Source: Prochlorococcus sp. AG-388-A04
GTDB taxonomy: Bacteria > Cyanobacteriota > Cyanobacteriia > PCC-6307 > Cyanobiaceae
Assembly (NCBI GenBank): GCA_003279935.1
Contig: QCGL01000009.1
Coordinates: 3,061 to 67,060 of the forward strand
Length of the DNA stretch: 64,000 nucleotides
Direction of reading: 5' to 3'
Shown: positions 12,550 to 22,153 of the stretch, in pieces
Layout of the letters: each line of letters starts with the position of its first letter
How positions within the stretch are numbered: position 1 is the stretch's first letter
The notes under the pieces: model-generated
Database searches by the model: none
What the model was told of the DNA's origin: nothing
What the model saw: only the letters and a program-made list of their open reading frames with translations
Made by a program: the position numbers and the translations under genes

Positions 12550-13338
12550 TTAAAATTTATTTCCAATTTTTGGAATTATTAACGAAGCCACGCAAATAAC
12601 ACTTATTGCAGGACCAGGAGATAAGTTAAAAACAATTGAAAGAATAAAACCCATTAGAGAAATACAAAGTCCAAAGAATGAAGATCTCATCATTGCAATC
12701 CTAAGACTTTGTGCTTTATCAAGTCCTAATAAAGTAGGTGTTGAGACTAATGCAATTACTAAAATTACTCCAACAGCTGACATTGAACTAACGATAACTA
12801 GTGCCGTCGTGAAACTTAGAGCTAGGTTTAACAAAGACACATTTATTCCACTAGCTGAGGCGCCCTCTGGATCTAATCCGACATATACAACTTTTTCATA
12901 TCCGAACGTTACTAATAAAATGAATGTAAGAAAAGCAATAATTGTTCTTAACAAATCGCCAAGGTTTGCGGTTAATAAATCTCCAAATAATACTGCCTCT
13001 AAGTCAATTCTTATCCCAAGAAGTGGAATTAGTAAAACCCCAAAACCAAGCATGCCAGCAAGAATTGTATTCATAACTGCTTCATAATTTTCACTTTTTT
13101 TATTAGTTAAACTCTCCGCAATAATTGCACCAACAAGACCACTTATAACTCCTCCAATTGAGGGTTGAATACCTAGAGCTAGAGCTAGAGCTAGTCCCGG
13201 TAAAACACAATGAGAAATTAAATTTACTTGTAATAGTCTTCTATGAGTAATCAATACTGTTCCCATAGCTGGGCATAAGATTCCAGAGAAAATAGTAATT
13301 ATTAAAGGAATTAACCACCAGTTGTTTAAAAAAGACAT
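12550..13338 (-). CDS. znuB: Zn/Mn ABC transporter permease
   Basis: ABC-3 family motifs SHCVLPG, LFGDLL, VGVILVIALVSTP. Confidence 0.9.
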   Translation of the reverse strand: MSFLNNWWLIPLIITIFSGILCPAMGTVLITHRRLLQVNLISHCVLPGLALALALGIQPSIGGVISGLVGAIIAESLTNKKSENYEAVMNTILAGMLGFGVLLIPLLGIRIDLEAVLFGDLLTANLGDLLRTIIAFLTFILLVTFGYEKVVYVGLDPEGASASGINVSLLNLALSFTTALVIVSSMSAVGVILVIALVSTPTLLGLDKAQSLRIAMMRSSFFGLCISLMGFILSIVFNLSPGPAISVICVASLIIPKIGNKF

Positions 13339-13385: not shown

Positions 13386-13790
13386 TTGAAAATGATGGTA
13401 ACCAAGCCTGACATTACCAAAAGACAAGAGCAACTTCTTGAAGAACTTAAAAAATGTGATGATGAATTGAGTGGTCAAGAATTGCATAGGCAATTGATTA
13501 TCGAAGGAAAATCTATGGGATTGACAACAGTTTATAGAAATCTTCAAGCTCTTATAAAACATGGATTGATTCGATCTAGACATCTTCCAACAGGTGAAGT
13601 ACTTTACACTCCTGTTGATAGAGATATTCACCATGTGACATGTGTTCAATGTGGAGAAACCTCCAAAATGGAAGGTTGTCCGGTAAAAGATATTCATAGT
13701 CCTAAGAAAAACCCAAAAAAATTTCAACTTTTGTTTCATACACTTGAATATTTCGGCCTTTGCCAAAACTGTTATCAAGCTCAGAGTTAA
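13386..13790 (+). CDS. zur: Fur-family regulator, most likely Zur
   Basis: GLTTVYRNL helix-turn-helix, HHVTCVQC and CQNC; lies within a Zn-uptake cluster. Confidence 0.85.
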   Translation: MKMMVTKPDITKRQEQLLEELKKCDDELSGQELHRQLIIEGKSMGLTTVYRNLQALIKHGLIRSRHLPTGEVLYTPVDRDIHHVTCVQCGETSKMEGCPVKDIHSPKKNPKKFQLLFHTLEYFGLCQNCYQAQS

Positions 13791-13804: not shown

Positions 13805-14575
13805 CTAATCACAAGAATTATTCTCTTTTAAAGAACTAATATTAAGATCATCTAATTTGCTTTGTATTGAATTGGGAGTTCCTGATGCTAATACTTTTTT
13901 ATCTAAAACAACTACATGATCATAACTATTGAGAGACGAGCCCCAATCATGACTACTTATAAACAAAGCTAAGCCTGCATCTGCAAGTTGACGGACTATC
14001 TTAAGAAAATCCTCCTTTGCGGGAGGATCTAATGCAGCACATGGTTCATCTAGCAGAAGAATTCTTGCAGGAGACATTAAAGTTTTAGCCAAAAGTGCTC
14101 TTTGTTGTTGTCCACCTGAAAGAGAATCAAGTCTTCTATTTGCAAGATTTGAAATGCCAACTCTTTGCATTGTTGCTTCCAATTCGCAACATTTATTAAC
14201 CCAAGACTTTGGATTTGCGAGAAGAGCCTTAATTTGGAATGGATTAGTATTTTTTGATTTTGAATATTTTATTTGACCTAAAGAGACTAATTTTTCAACA
14301 GTAATAGGAAATTTCCAATTCATTGAGCTTCTTTGTGGCATAAGTGCAATCTTGGATCTAGTTCTAACTAAACTTTCACCATCAATAGTTATATCTCCAA
14401 TATCAGGATTATTTTGTCCTTGCAATAATTTCAAAAGAGTTGATTTACCAGCTCCATTTGGTCCAACAAGAGCAGTCAATGTTCCTGGTTTTATTTGAAC
14501 TGAAACCTTATTTAAAGCTGGTTTGCTTTGTTTTGAATAAGAATAAGTTAAGTTATCTGCAATTAAAGTAGCCAT
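13805..14575 (-). CDS. znuC: Zn/Mn ABC transporter ATP-binding subunit
   Basis: Walker A GPNGAGKST, signature LSGGQQQR, Walker B LLLDEP, SSHD. Confidence 0.92.
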   Translation of the reverse strand: MATLIADNLTYSYSKQSKPALNKVSVQIKPGTLTALVGPNGAGKSTLLKLLQGQNNPDIGDITIDGESLVRTRSKIALMPQRSSMNWKFPITVEKLVSLGQIKYSKSKNTNPFQIKALLANPKSWVNKCCELEATMQRVGISNLANRRLDSLSGGQQQRALLAKTLMSPARILLLDEPCAALDPPAKEDFLKIVRQLADAGLALFISSHDWGSSLNSYDHVVVLDKKVLASGTPNSIQSKLDDLNISSLKENNSCD

Positions 14576-14673
14576 TAAAAAATATATTTAAATCAGTTAG
14601 ACCTTTATTTTATCAATATTAAGGAATCCATACTTATTTCATAACAATTGATACCAAATATTGCAATTAATAG

Positions 14674-14694
14674 TGAAAATGATTATCATTTTTA
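14674..14694. promoter_or_regulatory. Zur box in the divergent znuC/znuA promoter
   Basis: TGAAAATGATTATCATTTTTA contains a perfect 8-1-8 inverted repeat (AAAATGAT-T-ATCATTTT). Confidence 0.85.
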
Positions 14695-14715: not shown

Positions 14716-16224
14716 ATGTCAATTTTTAAAAAAGTAATTTTTAGTAATAAGAGATCTAATCATTCTGTTATCAAAAACTATTTATTAGCTGGAACCGTAT
14801 TATTATCAATAGTTGGTCAAGATGTTTTAGCGAAAGAAAAATCATATGTAGCTGTAGAGCCACTCACTTGCGATTTAGTAAAATCTATTGCCTTACCTTC
14901 TGATGAGGTAACCTGTTTGGTTGATAGAAAACAAGATGTACATGACTTAAAAATAACTCCAAGACAAGCTCAATTACTTAACAGTGCGGATAAAGTTTTT
15001 ACTCTAGGGAAAGAGATGACCCCAAGCATGAAAAATTGGGAGGGTAAGCCTCAAACAGTTGTAATTGGTGTAAGTGCTATAGATGTTGATGACCACTCTG
15101 ACCATGGTGGGCATGATGACCATGATGATCACTCTGCCGCAAAAGTAGATGATCATGGTGGACATGACGACCATGATGATCACGCTGGACATGATGACCA
15201 TGCAGAAGGTTCATTTGAATGGGCAGGCAAATTTCAACTCTCTAAAGGTTCCTACAAATGGTCATTCGCAAAGGTAGGTGGGGAATATGCAGATCCAGCT
15301 ATGAAAATGGTGATTCTAGAATCAAATGATATTGAATCTTCTGAAGAACTAGCTAAAGAGCTATTAGGATCTAAAGATTCAATAAACAAAAAAAATAATG
15401 GAATTCTCTTAGCGAGTAATAAAGCCTATGTTCTTAATTTTGATCAAGGGAAGGACAGTACAGTATTTAATGTAGAAATTCAAGAAGATGGCCAATATAC
15501 ATTCTTCACTGAACATATGCCTTTTGAGTTTGAAGCCGAAGAACACTTCTTTAAAGATTTATCTAATAGCGATGTTGAACCAATTGCACAAGTTCCAGAT
15601 GAAGGAGAGGGACATCACCACCATGATCACGGAGGATTAGATCCTCATGTTTGGCATGATCCTCATAACATCATAAAAATGGGAGAAGTTGTAAGTAAAA
15701 GTTTAAAGAAAGATATATCTGTTTTTAATAGACCTGACAGGAAATCAATCAATGCGAGCTTTGCTTCAGTAAATTCAACACTAGATAAACTCGATAGCTG
15801 GATTGTTGCACAGGTCTCAACAATTCCTGAATCTAACAGAGTTATTGTATCTAAACATAAAGCACTGGAATATTACGGCGATGCTTTTGGATTTGAGACT
15901 ATTAGCTTACTAGATTTTCTTGGTGACTCATCAAGTCTAAGACCTGACAATATTCAATCAACGTTGAAGATGCTTGATGAAGAAAATGTTAAGGCAATAT
16001 TTCCTGAACAAATACCTGCATCAAAGTTGTTAAAAAACTTAAGTAGGCAAAGTTCAGTTCCATTAGCTAATAGTCAAATATTTGTAGATGGATTAATGAT
16101 GACAGGTAATACAGTTTCAGTTGCTGTCCACAATACATGTACTATTGTTGATTCATTGGGTGGATCATGTGATAAAGAAGCAGGCTCCAACCTTGAAGGC
16201 ACCTGGAATTCTCTTCAAAATTAA
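14716..16224 (+). CDS. znuA: Zn ABC substrate-binding protein with His/Asp-rich loops and an inserted ~105-aa domain
   Basis: DVHDLKITP, DPHVWHDP and SKHKALEYY cluster A-I motifs; 502 aa is well above the usual ~300. Confidence 0.88.
   Translation: MSIFKKVIFSNKRSNHSVIKNYLLAGTVLLSIVGQDVLAKEKSYVAVEPLTCDLVKSIALPSDEVTCLVDRKQDVHDLKITPRQAQLLNSADKVFTLGKEMTPSMKNWEGKPQTVVIGVSAIDVDDHSDHGGHDDHDDHSAAKVDDHGGHDDHDDHAGHDDHAEGSFEWAGKFQLSKGSYKWSFAKVGGEYADPAMKMVILESNDIESSEELAKELLGSKDSINKKNNGILLASNKAYVLNFDQGKDSTVFNVEIQEDGQYTFFTEHMPFEFEAEEHFFKDLSNSDVEPIAQVPDEGEGHHHHDHGGLDPHVWHDPHNIIKMGEVVSKSLKKDISVFNRPDRKSINASFASVNSTLDKLDSWIVAQVSTIPESNRVIVSKHKALEYYGDAFGFETISLLDFLGDSSSLRPDNIQSTLKMLDEENVKAIFPEQIPASKLLKNLSRQSSVPLANSQIFVDGLMMTGNTVSVAVHNTCTIVDSLGGSCDKEAGSNLEGTWNSLQN
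15100..15183 (+). repeat. two imperfect 33-bp direct repeats encoding DHGGHDDHDDH
   Basis: 15100-15132 versus 15151-15183; 30/33 identical, all three differences synonymous. Confidence 0.85.
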
Positions 16225-16234
16225 ACTTTTCTTT

Positions 16235-16255
16235 AGATAACGGTTTTCATTATCA
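16235..16255. promoter_or_regulatory. second, degenerate Zur box upstream of the COG0523 gene
   Basis: AGATAACGGTTTTCATTATCA versus the idealised TGATAATGATnATCATTATCA: 4 mismatches. Confidence 0.65.
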
Positions 16256-16310
16256 ATCAATGTCTAATATATTATCTATTAGACATTATTTTATTTAGGT
16301 TAATTGGTTA

Positions 16311-17669
16311 ATGAGTATTAACGAAAAAGTGCCTGTGACAATACTCACTGGTTTTCTTGGTTCTGGTAAAACAACTCTTCTTAATAGAATATTGAGCGAA
16401 GAACATGGTAAGCGAATCGCTGTAATTGAGAACGAATATGGAGAAGTTGGAATTGATCAAGGATTGGTTATAAACGCCGATGAAGAAGTATTTGAAATGT
16501 CTAATGGTTGCATTTGTTGTACTGTTCGCGGAGATCTTATTAGAGTCCTTGGTAATTTAATGAAAAGAAGGGATAAATTTGACTACGTTTTAGTTGAAAC
16601 AACTGGGTTAGCTGATCCTGGTCCCGTTGCTCAAACATTTTTTATGGATGAAGAAATTAGTTCTGAATTCACACTTGATGGAATAGTTACATTAGTTGAT
16701 GCAGCTCATATTGATCAACAACTTGGGCGTAGTGATGAGAGTTCTGAGCAAGTGGCATTTGCAGATGTCTTAGTCCTTAATAAAACTGATTTAGTCTCAG
16801 ATGATGATCTTGATAACCTTGAATCAAGATTAAGAGATATGAATCGAATGACTCGTATTATTCGAGCAGAGAAAGCAGAGGTTCCTATTGAGACAGTTTT
16901 AAATTTGAGTGCATTCGATCTTGACCAAATTTTAAAGCGTAGACCAACTTTCTTAGAACCTGAATATCCTTTTGAATGGTCAGGAGTTTATGAGCTTGAA
17001 CCTGGAAAATATGAATTAAAACTTGAAGAAGGGCCTGATCCTGAAATGTCCTTAGTAGCTTTTGCTAATCAAGGATTGAGTGAAGAAGAATTAAAAGAGG
17101 GTGCAGAAGCCTCTGTAAGACTTTATGCAGAAAAAGCTAAAAACTTAGAACCTGGAAATAATATTCCATATGAAGAGCATGTAAGTCTTAAATTACAAAA
17201 CAAAGGATCTAAATCTTTTATTTTGGATGTTGAAAAAGCGTCAAAAGTTGGATTGTTCACACAACATACTGCTGAAGAATTCAATATGAAAGTGCTAAAA
17301 ATAGATTCCCAAAATAATGTTAAGGAAATTCCTTTTAAAACTGAAAGAAACTGGGTCGCAGAACATGAACATGATGATGAAGTTGGATCAATTGCAATAG
17401 AGCGTTTTGGAGATGTTGATCCTGAAAAGTTGAATACCTGGATGGGAAGACTTCTTTCCGAGAAAGGAGTTGATATATTCAGAACAAAAGGGTTTATTAG
17501 TTATTCTGGCAACCCACGTCGAATAGTATTTCAAGGAGTTCATATGTTATTTACTGCACAACCAGATAAAGAATGGGGAAATGAACCACGAAGAAATCAA
17601 CTCGTGTTTATTGGAAGAAATTTAAATGAAAAAGAAATGCAAGAGGGATTTGATAAGTGCCTGATATAG
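16311..17669 (+). CDS. COG0523/CobW-family G3E GTPase metallochaperone with an inserted domain
   Basis: GFLGSGKTT, GCICCTV, ETTG, NKTD, and CobW_C RTKG. Confidence 0.92.
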   Translation: MSINEKVPVTILTGFLGSGKTTLLNRILSEEHGKRIAVIENEYGEVGIDQGLVINADEEVFEMSNGCICCTVRGDLIRVLGNLMKRRDKFDYVLVETTGLADPGPVAQTFFMDEEISSEFTLDGIVTLVDAAHIDQQLGRSDESSEQVAFADVLVLNKTDLVSDDDLDNLESRLRDMNRMTRIIRAEKAEVPIETVLNLSAFDLDQILKRRPTFLEPEYPFEWSGVYELEPGKYELKLEEGPDPEMSLVAFANQGLSEEELKEGAEASVRLYAEKAKNLEPGNNIPYEEHVSLKLQNKGSKSFILDVEKASKVGLFTQHTAEEFNMKVLKIDSQNNVKEIPFKTERNWVAEHEHDDEVGSIAIERFGDVDPEKLNTWMGRLLSEKGVDIFRTKGFISYSGNPRRIVFQGVHMLFTAQPDKEWGNEPRRNQLVFIGRNLNEKEMQEGFDKCLI

Positions 17670-18730
17670 AACCTTTTAGCCCCAGAGGCATGTTTCATGA
17701 AGGATGGTCTGCTGAAGTTGATGATTATGCAATAGTTTGCGGTTGGGCTTTAAAAGGGAAACTCTTTGTCGTTGGAGACGTAATAGGAGGGCTTTATGGG
17801 TTCGAAGGAGATACAGGAAAGCTTATTTGGAAAAAGGATGAAGCCCATTCCGGAGGTCTTCTTGCAATGTCTATCCATCCAAATGGAGAGATTTTTGCAA
17901 CTTCAGGGCAAGACGGAATAGTTCGAATATTAAATTGCAATAATGGGGAGGAAATTAAAGCCATTAAACTTGGTAAAGGTTGGGTAGAACATTTAAGTTG
18001 GTCAAATGGAGGTTTATATTTAGCCGTAGCTTTTTCCAAAAAAGTATATGTTTTTAATCAAGATGGCAATGAACAATGGGTTTCAGAAGAACATCCGAGT
18101 ACAGTAAGTGCCATATCGTGGTCGAATAAGAATGAATTAGCAACTGCATGCTACGGACGCGTAACTTTCTTTGATGTAGCAAATAAAAAGACTAATCAGA
18201 AACTTGAATGGCAAGGTTCACTAGTTTCGATGCAGTTAAGCCCTGATGGAGATATTGTCGCCTGTGGGAGTCAAGATAATTCGGTACATTTCTGGCGTAG
18301 ATCAACTGGACTTGATGCTGAAATGACAGGTTATCCAGGAAAGCCTTCTCACCTTTCTTTCGATGATAGTGGCATGCTATTAGCAACTAGTGGTAGCGAA
18401 AGAATTACAGTATGGAGTTTTTCAGGAAATGGCCCTGAAGGAACAATGCCTGGAGAATTATGTCATCATACTGAACCAATTTCTAGCCTAGCTTTTTCTA
18501 ACAAAGGTTTGCTAGTTGCTTCAGGTTCAAGAGATGGTTCAGTAGTAGCTAGTTTTCTAAAAAACGACGGTAATGGAGATCCTGTAGGAGCTGCTTTTGC
18601 TGGAGATTTAGTTGGAGATATTGCTTGGAGACCCGATGACTGCGCTTTAGCTGCAGTTAATGCGAAAGGTGTTGTAACCGTTTGGAATTTTAAAGTCCGT
18701 ACAAGTTCTTCTTCAAAAGGGTTCAAGTAA
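17657..18730 (+). CDS. WD40-repeat beta-propeller protein
   Basis: Repeated AT(S/A)GxDG / VxxW units; GTG start overlaps the COG0523 stop by 13 nt. Confidence 0.88.
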   Translation: MPDIEPFSPRGMFHEGWSAEVDDYAIVCGWALKGKLFVVGDVIGGLYGFEGDTGKLIWKKDEAHSGGLLAMSIHPNGEIFATSGQDGIVRILNCNNGEEIKAIKLGKGWVEHLSWSNGGLYLAVAFSKKVYVFNQDGNEQWVSEEHPSTVSAISWSNKNELATACYGRVTFFDVANKKTNQKLEWQGSLVSMQLSPDGDIVACGSQDNSVHFWRRSTGLDAEMTGYPGKPSHLSFDDSGMLLATSGSERITVWSFSGNGPEGTMPGELCHHTEPISSLAFSNKGLLVASGSRDGSVVASFLKNDGNGDPVGAAFAGDLVGDIAWRPDDCALAAVNAKGVVTVWNFKVRTSSSSKGFK

Positions 18731-19445: not shown

Positions 19446-19534
19446 ATTTGTGTTAAAAAAACAAACTTTTGCATTATTATACTTTTTTAGCTATTTATTG
19501 TAATAAGAAACTTTATTTGGATAGAGATAAAATA

Positions 19535-19678
19535 ATGTCAAAAAAACTTAGATTTTTTTCTGATTTATTAGCTAGAGCTGTTAATGAAATCGAATACAAA
19601 AATGTTCTTAAAAAATTAAAGAATCATGATCTTATAGCAGATGTAGATGATCAGAGATCACACCATTTCTATTCATAG
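19535..19678 (+). CDS. small hypothetical protein (47 aa from ATG)
   Basis: Track ORF starts at TTG 19469; ATG 19535 (MSKKLRFF) is more plausible. Confidence 0.45.
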   Translation: MSKKLRFFSDLLARAVNEIEYKNVLKKLKNHDLIADVDDQRSHHFYS

Positions 19679-19806
19679 AGAAGGGGACTAAATTGAACTA
19701 TTGTTATAAATCTTTTACTTCAAAAATCTTACTTTGGCTAGAAGTCTCATTACAAATTAAATTTTTTATATTTCTAATAATTCGAGAAAAAGTTTTGTTT
19801 TAATCC

Positions 19807-20133
19807 ATGAATAATTACTATTGTCCATACTGTAATCCCAAATATCAATTTCAAAAAAAATTAACGTCAGGAGAATTAATATGTGGGTTATGTGGTGACC
19901 CTCTAGTAAAAAAGCCATTGATTAAAATCAATCAAATAATTGCTATTATTGCCTCCTTATCGCTAGTCCTTCCATTGATTTACACGTTTATTATTTTAAT
20001 TAAAAACCAAATAAATACTCCTAGTAGAAATTACAATGCAAGTGCAGATTTTATCGAGAAAAATTCAAACACAAGATTTTATCAACCTCTGCAAAGTGAT
20101 TTACTTAAACAAGAATCATCATCTTCAATTTGA
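19807..20133 (+). CDS. Zn-ribbon plus TM hypothetical protein
   Basis: CPYC...CGLC followed by one TM helix. Confidence 0.7.
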   Translation: MNNYYCPYCNPKYQFQKKLTSGELICGLCGDPLVKKPLIKINQIIAIIASLSLVLPLIYTFIILIKNQINTPSRNYNASADFIEKNSNTRFYQPLQSDLLKQESSSSI

Positions 20134-20354
20134 TTTTTATAACTAGAATTATTTAACTCTTTATTCATAATTAATGGTTTATCAGAATCTTTACAATGAT
20201 TTTTACATCCTCCATTAAATGAATCGTGGGCCTGTAAAAAGTGAGTATTTATTAAAAAGATAAATAAGATTAATTTAAAAGTTTGTTTTATTTTGGATTT
20301 CATTTTTAGTAAATTATTTACCAAGCCTGGATTGATATTATCAACTAATTCCAA
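20082..20354 (-). CDS. hypothetical exported Cys-containing protein
   Basis: Hydrophobic segment then GGCKNHC...CLSKSLCRG; 3' end overlaps the previous gene by 52 nt. Confidence 0.5.
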   Translation of the reverse strand: MELVDNINPGLVNNLLKMKSKIKQTFKLILFIFLINTHFLQAHDSFNGGCKNHCKDSDKPLIMNKELNNSSYKNQIEDDDSCLSKSLCRG

Positions 20355-20581
20355 GGAGTGTTAATCAATCCCCAAATATCAAAAAAGAAAAATAAAATTG
20401 CGATAACAACTAAATCCCAGGCCCTTTCCCTAAAAGCCCAAGGAGCTATAAAAACTTCTCCCAAACCATGAAGTGCAGCTCCAGTAGGTAGATGATCTAA
20501 AACAAGTAAACTATGAGAGAGAATAAAAAGTAAACTCGCAAAATATCTAAAAAAAACAAATTGCCAATTGCCAGAATTCAT
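20345..20581 (-). CDS. conserved small membrane protein
   Basis: 78 aa, 2-3 TM segments, WDLVVIA motif. Confidence 0.65.
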   Translation of the reverse strand: MNSGNWQFVFFRYFASLLFILSHSLLVLDHLPTGAALHGLGEVFIAPWAFRERAWDLVVIAILFFFFDIWGLINTPWN

Positions 20582-20707: not shown

Positions 20708-22153
20708 ATGAAGAGATATATGTTTTCAAATTATCGTCCTAAAAATAATTATGATGAATACTTTAAAGATAATTTAAATTCTTCCAGAGAAATTTTAACC
20801 CCCTTATTATCTTCCTTAGATAACATGGGTTTAGAAGAACTAAACAGAAATCATTCGGCGGCCAAGAAGTTATTATTAAGACATGGCGCAACTTTTAGGT
20901 TAAACGACACAGGCATTAAAGGTACAGAAAGAATATTACCTTTTGACCCTTTACCAAGAATAATAAGTAAGCACGACTGGATAACCTTGGAAGAAGGCTT
21001 AAAACAGAGACTTGAGGCAATAGATCATTTCTTAGATGATATATATAATTCTCAAAATATAATTAATGATGGAATAATTCCAAGGGAACTAATTGAGAGT
21101 TCAGAAGGATGGAGGCCTCAAATGTTAGGTTTTAAGCCTCCATTAAACAAATGGTGTCAAATATCAGGACTTGATTTAATAAGAGATGGTCAAGGTACTT
21201 GGCATGTTCTAGAAGACAACTTAAGATGTCCTTCTGGTGTGGCTTATTTTTTAGAGAATAGATTAGTGATGAAGAATATCTTCCCTAATCTTTTCTCAGG
21301 CAGGATAGTTAAACCTATTGATGAATACCCATCATTTTTATTAAAGACTCTCAAAGAACTAGCTATTTGGACTGATACACCAAAAATAGTTTTATTAACA
21401 CCTGGGATTTTTAATAGTGCATATTTTGAACATAGTTATTTAGCTCAAGAAATGGGTATTCAATTAGTTCAAGGTCATGATTTAATTTGTAACGATGAAT
21501 ATGTTTACTTAAAGACTACTTCTGGATTAAAAAGAGTAGATGTAATTTATAGAAGGATTGATGATGATTTTTTAGATCCTATACATTTTAGAAAAGATTC
21601 ATATTTAGGCGTTAGTGGTTTACTAGATGTCATGAAGGCAGGTCATGTTGCTGTTGCGAATGTCCCCGGGACAGGAATAGCAGATGACAAAATGATTTAT
21701 TCTTTTGTTCCTAAAATGATCAAATATTTTCTTGATGAAGAACCAATAATAAAAAATGTTGAAACCTATATTTGTTATTACGAAAAGGATAGAGAATATG
21801 TCTTAAAGAACCTTCCAAAACTTGTTGTAAAATCAGTCTCTGAAGCTGGTGGTTATGGTATGTTAATTGGTCCTCAATCAACTACAACTGAGATAAATGA
21901 ATTCTCAGATAAAATTAAAAATAACCCTAGAAATTTTATAGCTCAACCCACTCTAGAACTTTCTACAGTTCCCTCATTATGCGATGGTGAACTTTATCCA
22001 TGTCACGTTGATTTAAGACCTTACATTTTAAGGGGAAAGGATTCATGGGTAAGTCCAGGAGGTCTAACTAGAGTTGCTTTAAAAAAAGGTTCATTAGTAG
22101 TCAATTCTTCTCAAGGAGGGGGTTGCAAAGATACATGGGTTGTAGGAAATTAG
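20708..22153 (+). CDS. circularly permuted type 2 ATP-grasp protein
   Basis: VLEDNLRCPSGV, VDVIYRRIDD, GGYGMLIGP, HVDLRP, VVNSSQGGGCKDTWV. Confidence 0.92.
   Translation: MKRYMFSNYRPKNNYDEYFKDNLNSSREILTPLLSSLDNMGLEELNRNHSAAKKLLLRHGATFRLNDTGIKGTERILPFDPLPRIISKHDWITLEEGLKQRLEAIDHFLDDIYNSQNIINDGIIPRELIESSEGWRPQMLGFKPPLNKWCQISGLDLIRDGQGTWHVLEDNLRCPSGVAYFLENRLVMKNIFPNLFSGRIVKPIDEYPSFLLKTLKELAIWTDTPKIVLLTPGIFNSAYFEHSYLAQEMGIQLVQGHDLICNDEYVYLKTTSGLKRVDVIYRRIDDDFLDPIHFRKDSYLGVSGLLDVMKAGHVAVANVPGTGIADDKMIYSFVPKMIKYFLDEEPIIKNVETYICYYEKDREYVLKNLPKLVVKSVSEAGGYGMLIGPQSTTTEINEFSDKIKNNPRNFIAQPTLELSTVPSLCDGELYPCHVDLRPYILRGKDSWVSPGGLTRVALKKGSLVVNSSQGGGCKDTWVVGN

Follow-up and report, generated by a model that had tools for sequence, protein, structure and literature searches.

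Within the 64,000-nucleotide window of Prochlorococcus sp. AG-388-A04 DNA analyzed here (contig QCGL01000009.1, positions 3,061 to 67,060), the binding protein ZnuA and the COG0523 (G3E) GTPase encoded next to it each carry an insert, and these two inserts are copies of one and the same domain of about 130 amino acids. The interpretation that we favor, and for which our confidence is moderate, is that they represent an ancient folded accessory module that would bind Zn, and probably Co and Ni as well, and that would work in the manner of the His-rich loops of metal-trafficking proteins. An earlier note on this stretch of DNA, drawn up from its letters alone, had already proposed that ZnuA and the COG0523 protein share an unnamed domain.

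When the two full-length proteins of the window were compared by BLASTP, a single significant alignment was recovered, connecting residues 164-304 of ZnuA with residues 218-355 of the COG0523 protein (26% identity, E=2e-6). The motifs FEWxG, GxY, DPxM and FT(E/Q)HxxxEF are collinear in this alignment, just as the earlier note had described them, and the peptides that it quoted are exact translations of 15214-15531 and 16971-17282. Its estimate of a length of about 105 amino acids stands as the span from the first to the last motif (104-106 amino acids), but the domain itself, as delimited by the envelope of a hidden Markov model (HMM) and by AlphaFold2 models, comprises about 127-132 residues. 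The relationship is equally evident when sets of inserts that had been aligned independently are compared with hhalign: the ZnuA-type set (n=29) matches the COG0523-type set (n=54) with a probability of 99.9% (E=6.9e-32, 126 columns). A third set, taken from transporters of the ZIP family, matches the ZnuA type at E=6.7e-50 and the COG0523 type at E=1e-26. Judged by these sequence comparisons, the window copies are homologous and stem from different, old subtypes of the domain. As the ZnuA type is nearer to the ZIP type than to the COG0523 type encoded next to it, a recent local duplication between the neighboring genes is excluded, in agreement with the old domain-sharing event that the note had postulated. 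The extracytoplasmic subtype is recognizable by the motifs YADPxMK and EFExxxH(F/Y)(F/L)K, and the cytoplasmic subtype by EPEYPFEW, GPDPxM and FTQHxxEEF. Both window copies carry the full signature E-W-G...D-P-x-M...H-x-x-x-E-F, which is formed in ZnuA by E168, W169, G171, D193, M196, H267, E271 and F272, with H277 as the extra residue of the extracytoplasmic subtype, and in the COG0523 protein by E222, W223, G225, D243, M246, H319, E323 and F324.

Each insert can be placed precisely with respect to its host protein. The window ZnuA belongs to the cluster A-I periplasmic metal-binding proteins; the PF01297 profile matches both of its lobes, and this match is split by an Asp/His-rich loop together with the insert, which sits inside that loop. 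Relatives of known structure in the PDB (AztC, PsaA and TroA; E down to 8.5e-13) align to the protein only from about residue 292 on. The COG0523 protein displays the hallmarks of its subfamily, a P-loop (GFLGSGKTT, residues 14-22), a CICC motif (residues 67-70) and a CobW_C domain (residues 359-451), and it is matched by the Pfam models PF02492 and PF07683 (Table 1). Escherichia coli YjiA aligns with it at E=2.4e-62 in two blocks, covering residues 7-214 and 347-447 of the query, and these blocks abut at YjiA residues 214/215. Because they do so, residues 215-346 of the COG0523 protein are to be read from the alignment as an insertion into the linker between the GTPase and C-terminal domains. 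Both positions are those that the note had assigned. The domain would be an addition to its two hosts in the window and not a replacement, since the candidate primary-site motifs persist alongside it: the P-loop and the CICC motif in the COG0523 protein, and in ZnuA three His motifs, DVH76DL, DPH311VWH314D and SKH381KA, which were assigned by motif only.

Structural models of both inserts, which the earlier note had recommended, were calculated with AlphaFold2 from domain-only alignments of 54 sequences for the COG0523 copy and 43 sequences for the ZnuA copy. The predicted local distance difference test (pLDDT) score was 95.6 for the former and 95.7 for the latter, and the predicted template modeling (pTM) score was 0.88 and 0.89, respectively. 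Three strands, a helix of 13-15 residues, four to five strands, a helical turn and terminal strands follow one another in both models, and the H-x-x-x-E-F motif is found on the short helical turn in each; the comparison was made by the order of secondary-structure elements and not by three-dimensional superposition. The models confidently predict an autonomously folding beta-sandwich with one long helix. In terms of signature, order of elements and mutual profile match, both window copies qualify as members of the new protein family that we propose.

The note knew of no named Pfam family for the domain, and database searches agree. Scans with Pfam-A (2025) and NCBIfam (2026) yielded no model that matches either insert at threshold, the sole signal at E<=1, a weak one, being Pfam CBM_35 (E=0.054; 14.2 bits against a cut-off of 28). 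Profile searches against the sequences of the PDB gave no significant match (best E=0.28-0.33), and Foldseek searches of the PDB with both models recovered nothing at E<=1e-3, with best template modeling (TM) scores of 0.3-0.44. The weak Foldseek matches are generic jelly-rolls: viral capsids, haemagglutinin heads, CBM35 (TM about 0.34) and PA14 adhesin domains (TM 0.44). Among viral models (BFVD), Foldseek found nothing significant.

Searches with a word index and single inserts as queries brought up chiefly short fragments from metagenomes; every match was a ZnuA or COG0523 protein, so that these searches understated the host range. A profile built from 16 inserts recovered in this way was then run exhaustively against 1.84 billion cluster representatives, and it detected 680 proteins at E<=1e-3, of which 279 passed E<=1e-10. 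This profile mixed both subtypes, which favors the recovery of both; the pairwise BLASTP alignment of the window proteins is independent of it. The best 150 of the 680 proteins were examined, and host domains were assigned with Pfam in the top 131. CobW_C (32 proteins), cobW (24), ZnuA (23) and ZIP (13) prevail among the hosts, followed by CusB/CzcB-type (HlyD) membrane fusion proteins (3) and by one protein each of the CDF, CbtA and CbiM families; in all 131 family members, the domain itself lies outside every Pfam match. Many more matches are proteins of about 180-200 amino acids that possess a signal peptide, a lipobox or a twin-arginine (Tat) motif and often a His-rich tail. No Pfam match of any kind was obtained for two stand-alone homologs, and the gene context was uninformative for two such homologs. 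The handling of transition metals is the only trait common to all hosts. The wider search for host proteins that the note had called for thus bears out its view of a mobile module of metal-handling proteins, ZIP transporters included, that is used on both sides of the cytoplasmic membrane.

Where the domain resides in these proteins corresponds to the known accessory metal sites. It occupies the His-rich loop of ZnuA, the linker between GTPase and C-terminal domains in COG0523 proteins, the extracellular N-terminus of ZIP transporters and, in the membrane fusion proteins, the N-terminal region ahead of the barrel-sandwich. Typical ZIP hosts measure about 630 amino acids and consist of a signal peptide, two tandem domain copies and then the membrane domain (e.g., P0168, P0194, P0201, P0202, P0220 and P0283). 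Their open reading frames (ORFs) are the sole ones on contigs of about 2 kb (e.g., L084), and one cluster includes sequences assembled from the ERR1719446 read set; that these transporters come from eukaryotic plankton is a plausible guess. In the CDF protein of Paenibacillus solisilvae (WP_379192094.1), the domain is found at the C-terminal tail, after the cytoplasmic dimerization domain, with His-rich runs on both sides. A 303-amino-acid hypothetical protein with the domain is encoded on plasmid CP071185.1 of Alicyclobacillus curvatus (L087, 4788-5699), where its gene is accompanied by those for a divalent cation transporter, two cation transporters, ArsR-type and CsoR-type regulators, and a ferredoxin-domain protein; this cluster is a plasmid-borne metal-homeostasis island. 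On megaplasmids of several haloarchaea, the domain is found in ZnuA-type binding proteins and in hypothetical proteins. The named sources, a handful of records on which the taxonomic assignments rest, comprise Prochlorococcus, metagenome-assembled genomes of Gammaproteobacteria and Pseudomonadota, Bacillota and haloarchaea.

In 156 near-full-length instances of the domain, conservation of 80-97% is seen at Glu and Trp in the FEW motif, at the Gly that follows, at Asp and Met in DPxM, at His in T(E/Q)H and at the Glu-Phe pair four residues further on, as well as at a Leu and a Phe in the central strands. The positions that the note had put forward as ligands (E, D/M, H and E) are hence among the most conserved ones. 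The complete seven-residue signature is present in 101 of these instances. At least two of the four residues Glu, Asp, His and Glu are lost together in 12 instances, against about 5 expected if the losses were independent (a rough estimate).

That the domain and His-rich sequences perform related jobs is indicated most directly by natural variation in Prochlorococcus ZnuA proteins, in which the two trade places. We surveyed the best 80 loci from an alignment of COG0523 sequences only, all of them from Prochlorococcus, and these contain 73 complete znuA genes. The COG0523 gene always carries one domain copy, whereas ZnuA carries none in 6, one in 55 and two in 12 of the complete genes (examples of this variation are L057, 4147-5286; L001, 3440-5284; and L067, 3416-5287). 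ZnuA proteins lacking the domain, such as that of strain MIT 9302, have just a long Asp/His repeat loop in its place. Those with one copy are laid out as an Asp/His run, the domain and a His cluster. In those with two copies, which are 66-73% identical to each other, the additional copy replaces the upstream His-rich run, and a short His-containing linker joins the pair. Accordingly, the fraction of His in the residues that precede the domain (up to 39) is 0.00 in two-copy proteins versus a mean of 0.27 in one-copy proteins. On the downstream side, 21 of 28 ZnuA-type hosts have at least 20% His in the 30 residues after the domain.

The Asp/His-rich loop of the window ZnuA is itself encoded in part by tandem DNA repeats (15087-15202; period 9 with 4.7 copies and period 27 with 2.0 copies), and its length varies between Prochlorococcus strains (loci L065, L057 and L027 were compared). 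The repeats and the strain-specific lengths together suggest that the loop expands and contracts by slippage. Antisense to this region of znuA, an ORF of 65 amino acids is present on the minus strand at 15004-15201 (MVIMSSVIIMVVM...); most likely it is no gene but a side effect of the repeated GAT/CAT codons.

How might such a module work? We infer that the domain binds metal, and the ligands, the metal preference and the role in hand-off set out below are part of that proposal. The domain would capture metal at a secondary site beside the primary site of its host and would then buffer it or hand it on, with the periplasmic copy serving ZnuA and the cytoplasmic copy serving the COG0523 metallochaperone. 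Four near-invariant residues make up the candidate site: the FEW Glu, the DPxM Asp, the T(E/Q)H His and the Glu of the EF pair. The conserved Met could add a fifth ligand or belong to the core. In the models, the first Glu lies before strand 1, the Asp in the loop that returns from the hairpin of strands 1 and 2, the His after strand 7, and the second Glu in the next turn. Going by this order of strands, the four residues should all be located at one end of the sandwich. The zinc context of the domain is strong, as it encompasses a Zur box, ZnuABC, ZIP and CDF transporters and czc-type fusion proteins. The occurrence of CbtA and CbiM among the hosts argues for a broader preference that would include Zn, Co and Ni.

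Several considerations weigh against an accessory metal-binding module. The clustering of the Glu, Asp, His and Glu residues at one end of the sandwich is deduced from strand order alone, and their conservation could also reflect a structural network of salt bridges or a site for a non-metal ligand. A conserved Met would be unusual for a Zn site. His-rich flanks were found in none of the 48 to 49 COG0523-type copies, and the tie to His-rich loops is consequently only positional in this host. Finally, the faint resemblance to generic jelly-roll binding domains leaves the fold without a functional anchor.

The alternative that survives best, one that we nevertheless regard as unlikely, is that the domain serves as a protein-protein docking module whose conserved polar residues form an interaction surface, in the cytoplasm for the WD40 protein encoded next to the COG0523 gene, or in the periplasm for the permease or an outer-membrane component. 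The COG0523-type copy does travel with the WD40 gene, which is kept in 78 of the 80 Prochlorococcus loci and whose proximity is already noted in the passages of Barnett et al. (2012; PMC3323870) considered here. Beta-sandwich and jelly-roll folds are common as interaction modules, and the lack of His-rich flanks in COG0523-type copies would fit with docking. A protein partner shared by all copies is implausible, however, for a signature that bacteria and archaea have in common and that hosts display on either side of the membrane. Stand-alone secreted copies of the domain exist, and the trading of places between the domain and a His-rich stretch in ZnuA is likewise difficult to reconcile with docking.

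Less probable still is a domain that recognizes metal in complex with a ligand (for instance an organic Zn or Co chelate), or some other small molecule, in place of the bare ion. Organic ligands complex most of the Zn and Co dissolved in seawater, many of the hosts come from marine samples, and the nearest likenesses of the fold are the ligand-binding jelly-rolls CBM35 and PA14. None of these likenesses is significant, though, and the conserved residues are typical hard or borderline metal ligands. Moreover, there is no obvious need for a chelate binder in the cytoplasm, where the COG0523 copies and the C-terminal copy of the CDF protein reside. We give slightly less credence again to a structural spacer or regulatory plug that holds apart or gates the lobes of its host and binds nothing of its own: such an element would neither preserve an E...D...H...E signature in 156 copies from unrelated hosts nor occur on its own in secreted form, and it would not be confined to metal-handling proteins, even if the domain sits in inter-domain linkers and is dispensable in some natural ZnuA variants. 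That the two inserts resemble each other by chance, through composition or through a recent duplication, as the adjacency of the genes and the pairwise identity of 26% might intimate, can practically be dismissed in view of the pairwise and profile-profile matches, the common order of elements in two confident models, and the wide distribution of each subtype, with the ZnuA type closer to the ZIP type than to its neighbor's copy. None of these rivals explains the host range together with the conserved signature as well as a metal-binding module does.

Taken further, this module can be pictured as a plug-in metal antenna with a new fold and a Glu/Asp/His/Glu (+Met) site, a folded version of the His-rich loop that importers, exporters and chaperones from seven or more families, in bacteria and archaea and, through the ZIP hosts, probably in eukaryotic plankton, would have taken up. 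In Prochlorococcus, its periplasmic (ZnuA) and cytoplasmic (COG0523) copies would make up the two matching ends of a Zn/Co relay across ZnuBC, and its copy number in ZnuA would be tuned to the trace-metal regime of the ecotype. We offer this extended picture tentatively; as a whole it is possible, with the odds against it.

The insert of the COG0523 protein has been noticed before. In the passages of their study considered here, Barnett et al. (2012; Front Microbiol 3:142; PMC3323870) describe, for a 'branch 1a' of cyanobacterial COG0523 proteins, an insert of about 150 amino acids that is not His-rich, has 4-6 predicted beta strands and 1-2 helices, lacks an InterPro match and is perhaps a domain in its own right. 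This is the same feature as the window copy, in the same protein family and in the same neighborhood (znuABC, zur and WD40); according to that study, the branch 1a protein of marine Synechococcus WH8102 has the insert too. The passages contain neither the ZnuA copy nor the homology between the ZnuA and COG0523 inserts, the signature or the other host families, all of which are added here. Diatom ZCRP-B, which was considered as a named relative, was rejected, as it is NikA-like (PMC9010474). The 2012 description of the COG0523 insert was the only account of the shared domain that our literature search retrieved, and most subscription journals lay outside that search. While the theme of accessory metal-binding elements on metal-trafficking proteins is familiar, the unification of inserts from ZnuA, COG0523, ZIP, CDF, membrane fusion, CbtA and CbiM proteins into one domain family appears to be new, as do its signature, its confidently predicted and unmatched fold and its copy-number variation in Prochlorococcus.

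The closest presumed functional counterparts of the domain are the His-rich loops, linkers and tails of ZnuA, COG0523, CDF and ZIP proteins. The domain occupies the same positions in these hosts, borders on such stretches in ZnuA and CDF proteins and, by analogy, may have the role presumed for them, namely a secondary, lower-affinity capture of metal beside the primary site. Unlike these disordered stretches of low complexity, it is a confidently predicted fold of about 130 amino acids with one invariant His. A folded metal-binding domain attached to a cluster A-I protein is known from AdcA of Streptococcus, in which a ZinT/YodA-like domain aids the acquisition of Zn. That domain is a C-terminal fusion from another family, whereas the window domain is an insertion in a loop; the ZnuA insert has no match to ZinT, and the NCBIfam AdcA model aligns only with residues 296-439, that is, with the ZnuA fold (39.7 bits against a cut-off of 700). 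In the three fusion proteins and in the 13 to 15 ZIP hosts, the latter often with tandem copies, the domain takes the N-terminal position of the CusB/CzcB-type metal-binding region and of the ZIP extracellular domain, respectively; no relation in sequence or fold to the solved structures of these N-terminal regions was found. With jelly-roll modules such as CBM35, PA14 and galactose-binding-like domains, it has the beta-sandwich in common, but the scores fall far below thresholds, no shared motifs are evident, and the hosts of those modules are glycan-active while the hosts of the domain are metal proteins.

Both domain copies are embedded in a zinc-uptake locus (Table 1) within a window whose G+C content of about 30% indicates that the source Prochlorococcus is probably of the high-light-adapted type. 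By tblastn, the region of the COG0523 insert is up to 96% identical to sequences from Prochlorococcus single-cell genomes, and a megablast comparison of the locus with phage genomes gave no match. Between the divergent znuC and znuA genes lies the palindrome AAATGATTATCATTT, which occurs without mismatch at this single site in the window and overlaps the -10 element of a promoter-like sequence facing znuA (TTGCAA-17-TATCAT, 14661-14689). This placement is as expected for an operator, and AAATGATTATCATTT is probably the target of Zur; a Zur box at the same position in Prochlorococcus is already reported in the passages of Barnett et al. (2012; PMC3323870) considered here. A search upstream of the COG0523 gene for a second Zur box with up to three mismatches found none. 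As no plus-strand terminator-like site was detected between the znuA, COG0523 and WD40 genes, these are probably co-transcribed, and they appear to form one operon under Zur control. The start of the WD40 gene overlaps the stop codon of the COG0523 gene by 13 nucleotides, and its product may be a partner or a client of the COG0523 chaperone. Further downstream, the window contains several small ORFs at 19469-20581 and an ORF of 481 amino acids at 20708-22153.

Table 1. Features of the zinc-uptake locus, with positions counted from the first nucleotide of the window.
Feature	Positions	Strand	Basis
znuB, ABC-3 permease	12550..13338	-	Pfam ABC-3, E=9.8e-43
zur, FUR-family regulator	13386..13790	+	Pfam FUR, E=1e-18
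znuC, ABC ATPase	13805..14575	-	Pfam ABC_tran, E=2.6e-31
Candidate Zur box AAATGATTATCATTT, perfect palindrome of 15 nt between divergent znuC and znuA	14677..14691		
znuA, 502 aa	14716..16224	+	Pfam ZnuA (PF01297), E=3.6e-42, two stretches
ZnuA Asp/His-rich loop, aa 123-162, directly upstream of the domain	15082..15201	+	
ZnuA domain copy, aa 162-293	15199..15594	+	HMM envelope; AlphaFold2 model
ZnuA HHHHDH cluster, aa 300-305, just past the domain and before the conserved DPHVWHD of the ZnuA fold	15613..15630	+	
COG0523 (G3E) GTPase, 452 aa	16311..17669	+	Pfam cobW (PF02492), E=1.8e-61; CobW_C (PF07683), E=9.8e-25
COG0523 domain copy, aa 216-342	16956..17336	+	HMM envelope; AlphaFold2 model
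WD40 beta-propeller gene	17657..18730	+	Pfam WD40, E=6e-26

The accessory metal-capture elements of zinc importers, zinc exporters and COG0523 chaperones are usually seen as disordered His-rich sequences, and their role is debated. A folded and conserved domain that is reused in the same positions offers a tractable handle on accessory metal capture. Its definition as a family would annotate hundreds of clusters of hypothetical proteins and would flag genes for metal homeostasis, such as those for stand-alone lipoproteins. The requirements of Prochlorococcus for Zn and Co are a matter of debate as well, and the presence of zero, one or two domain copies in ZnuA could mark the adaptation of these cyanobacteria to trace-metal scarcity.

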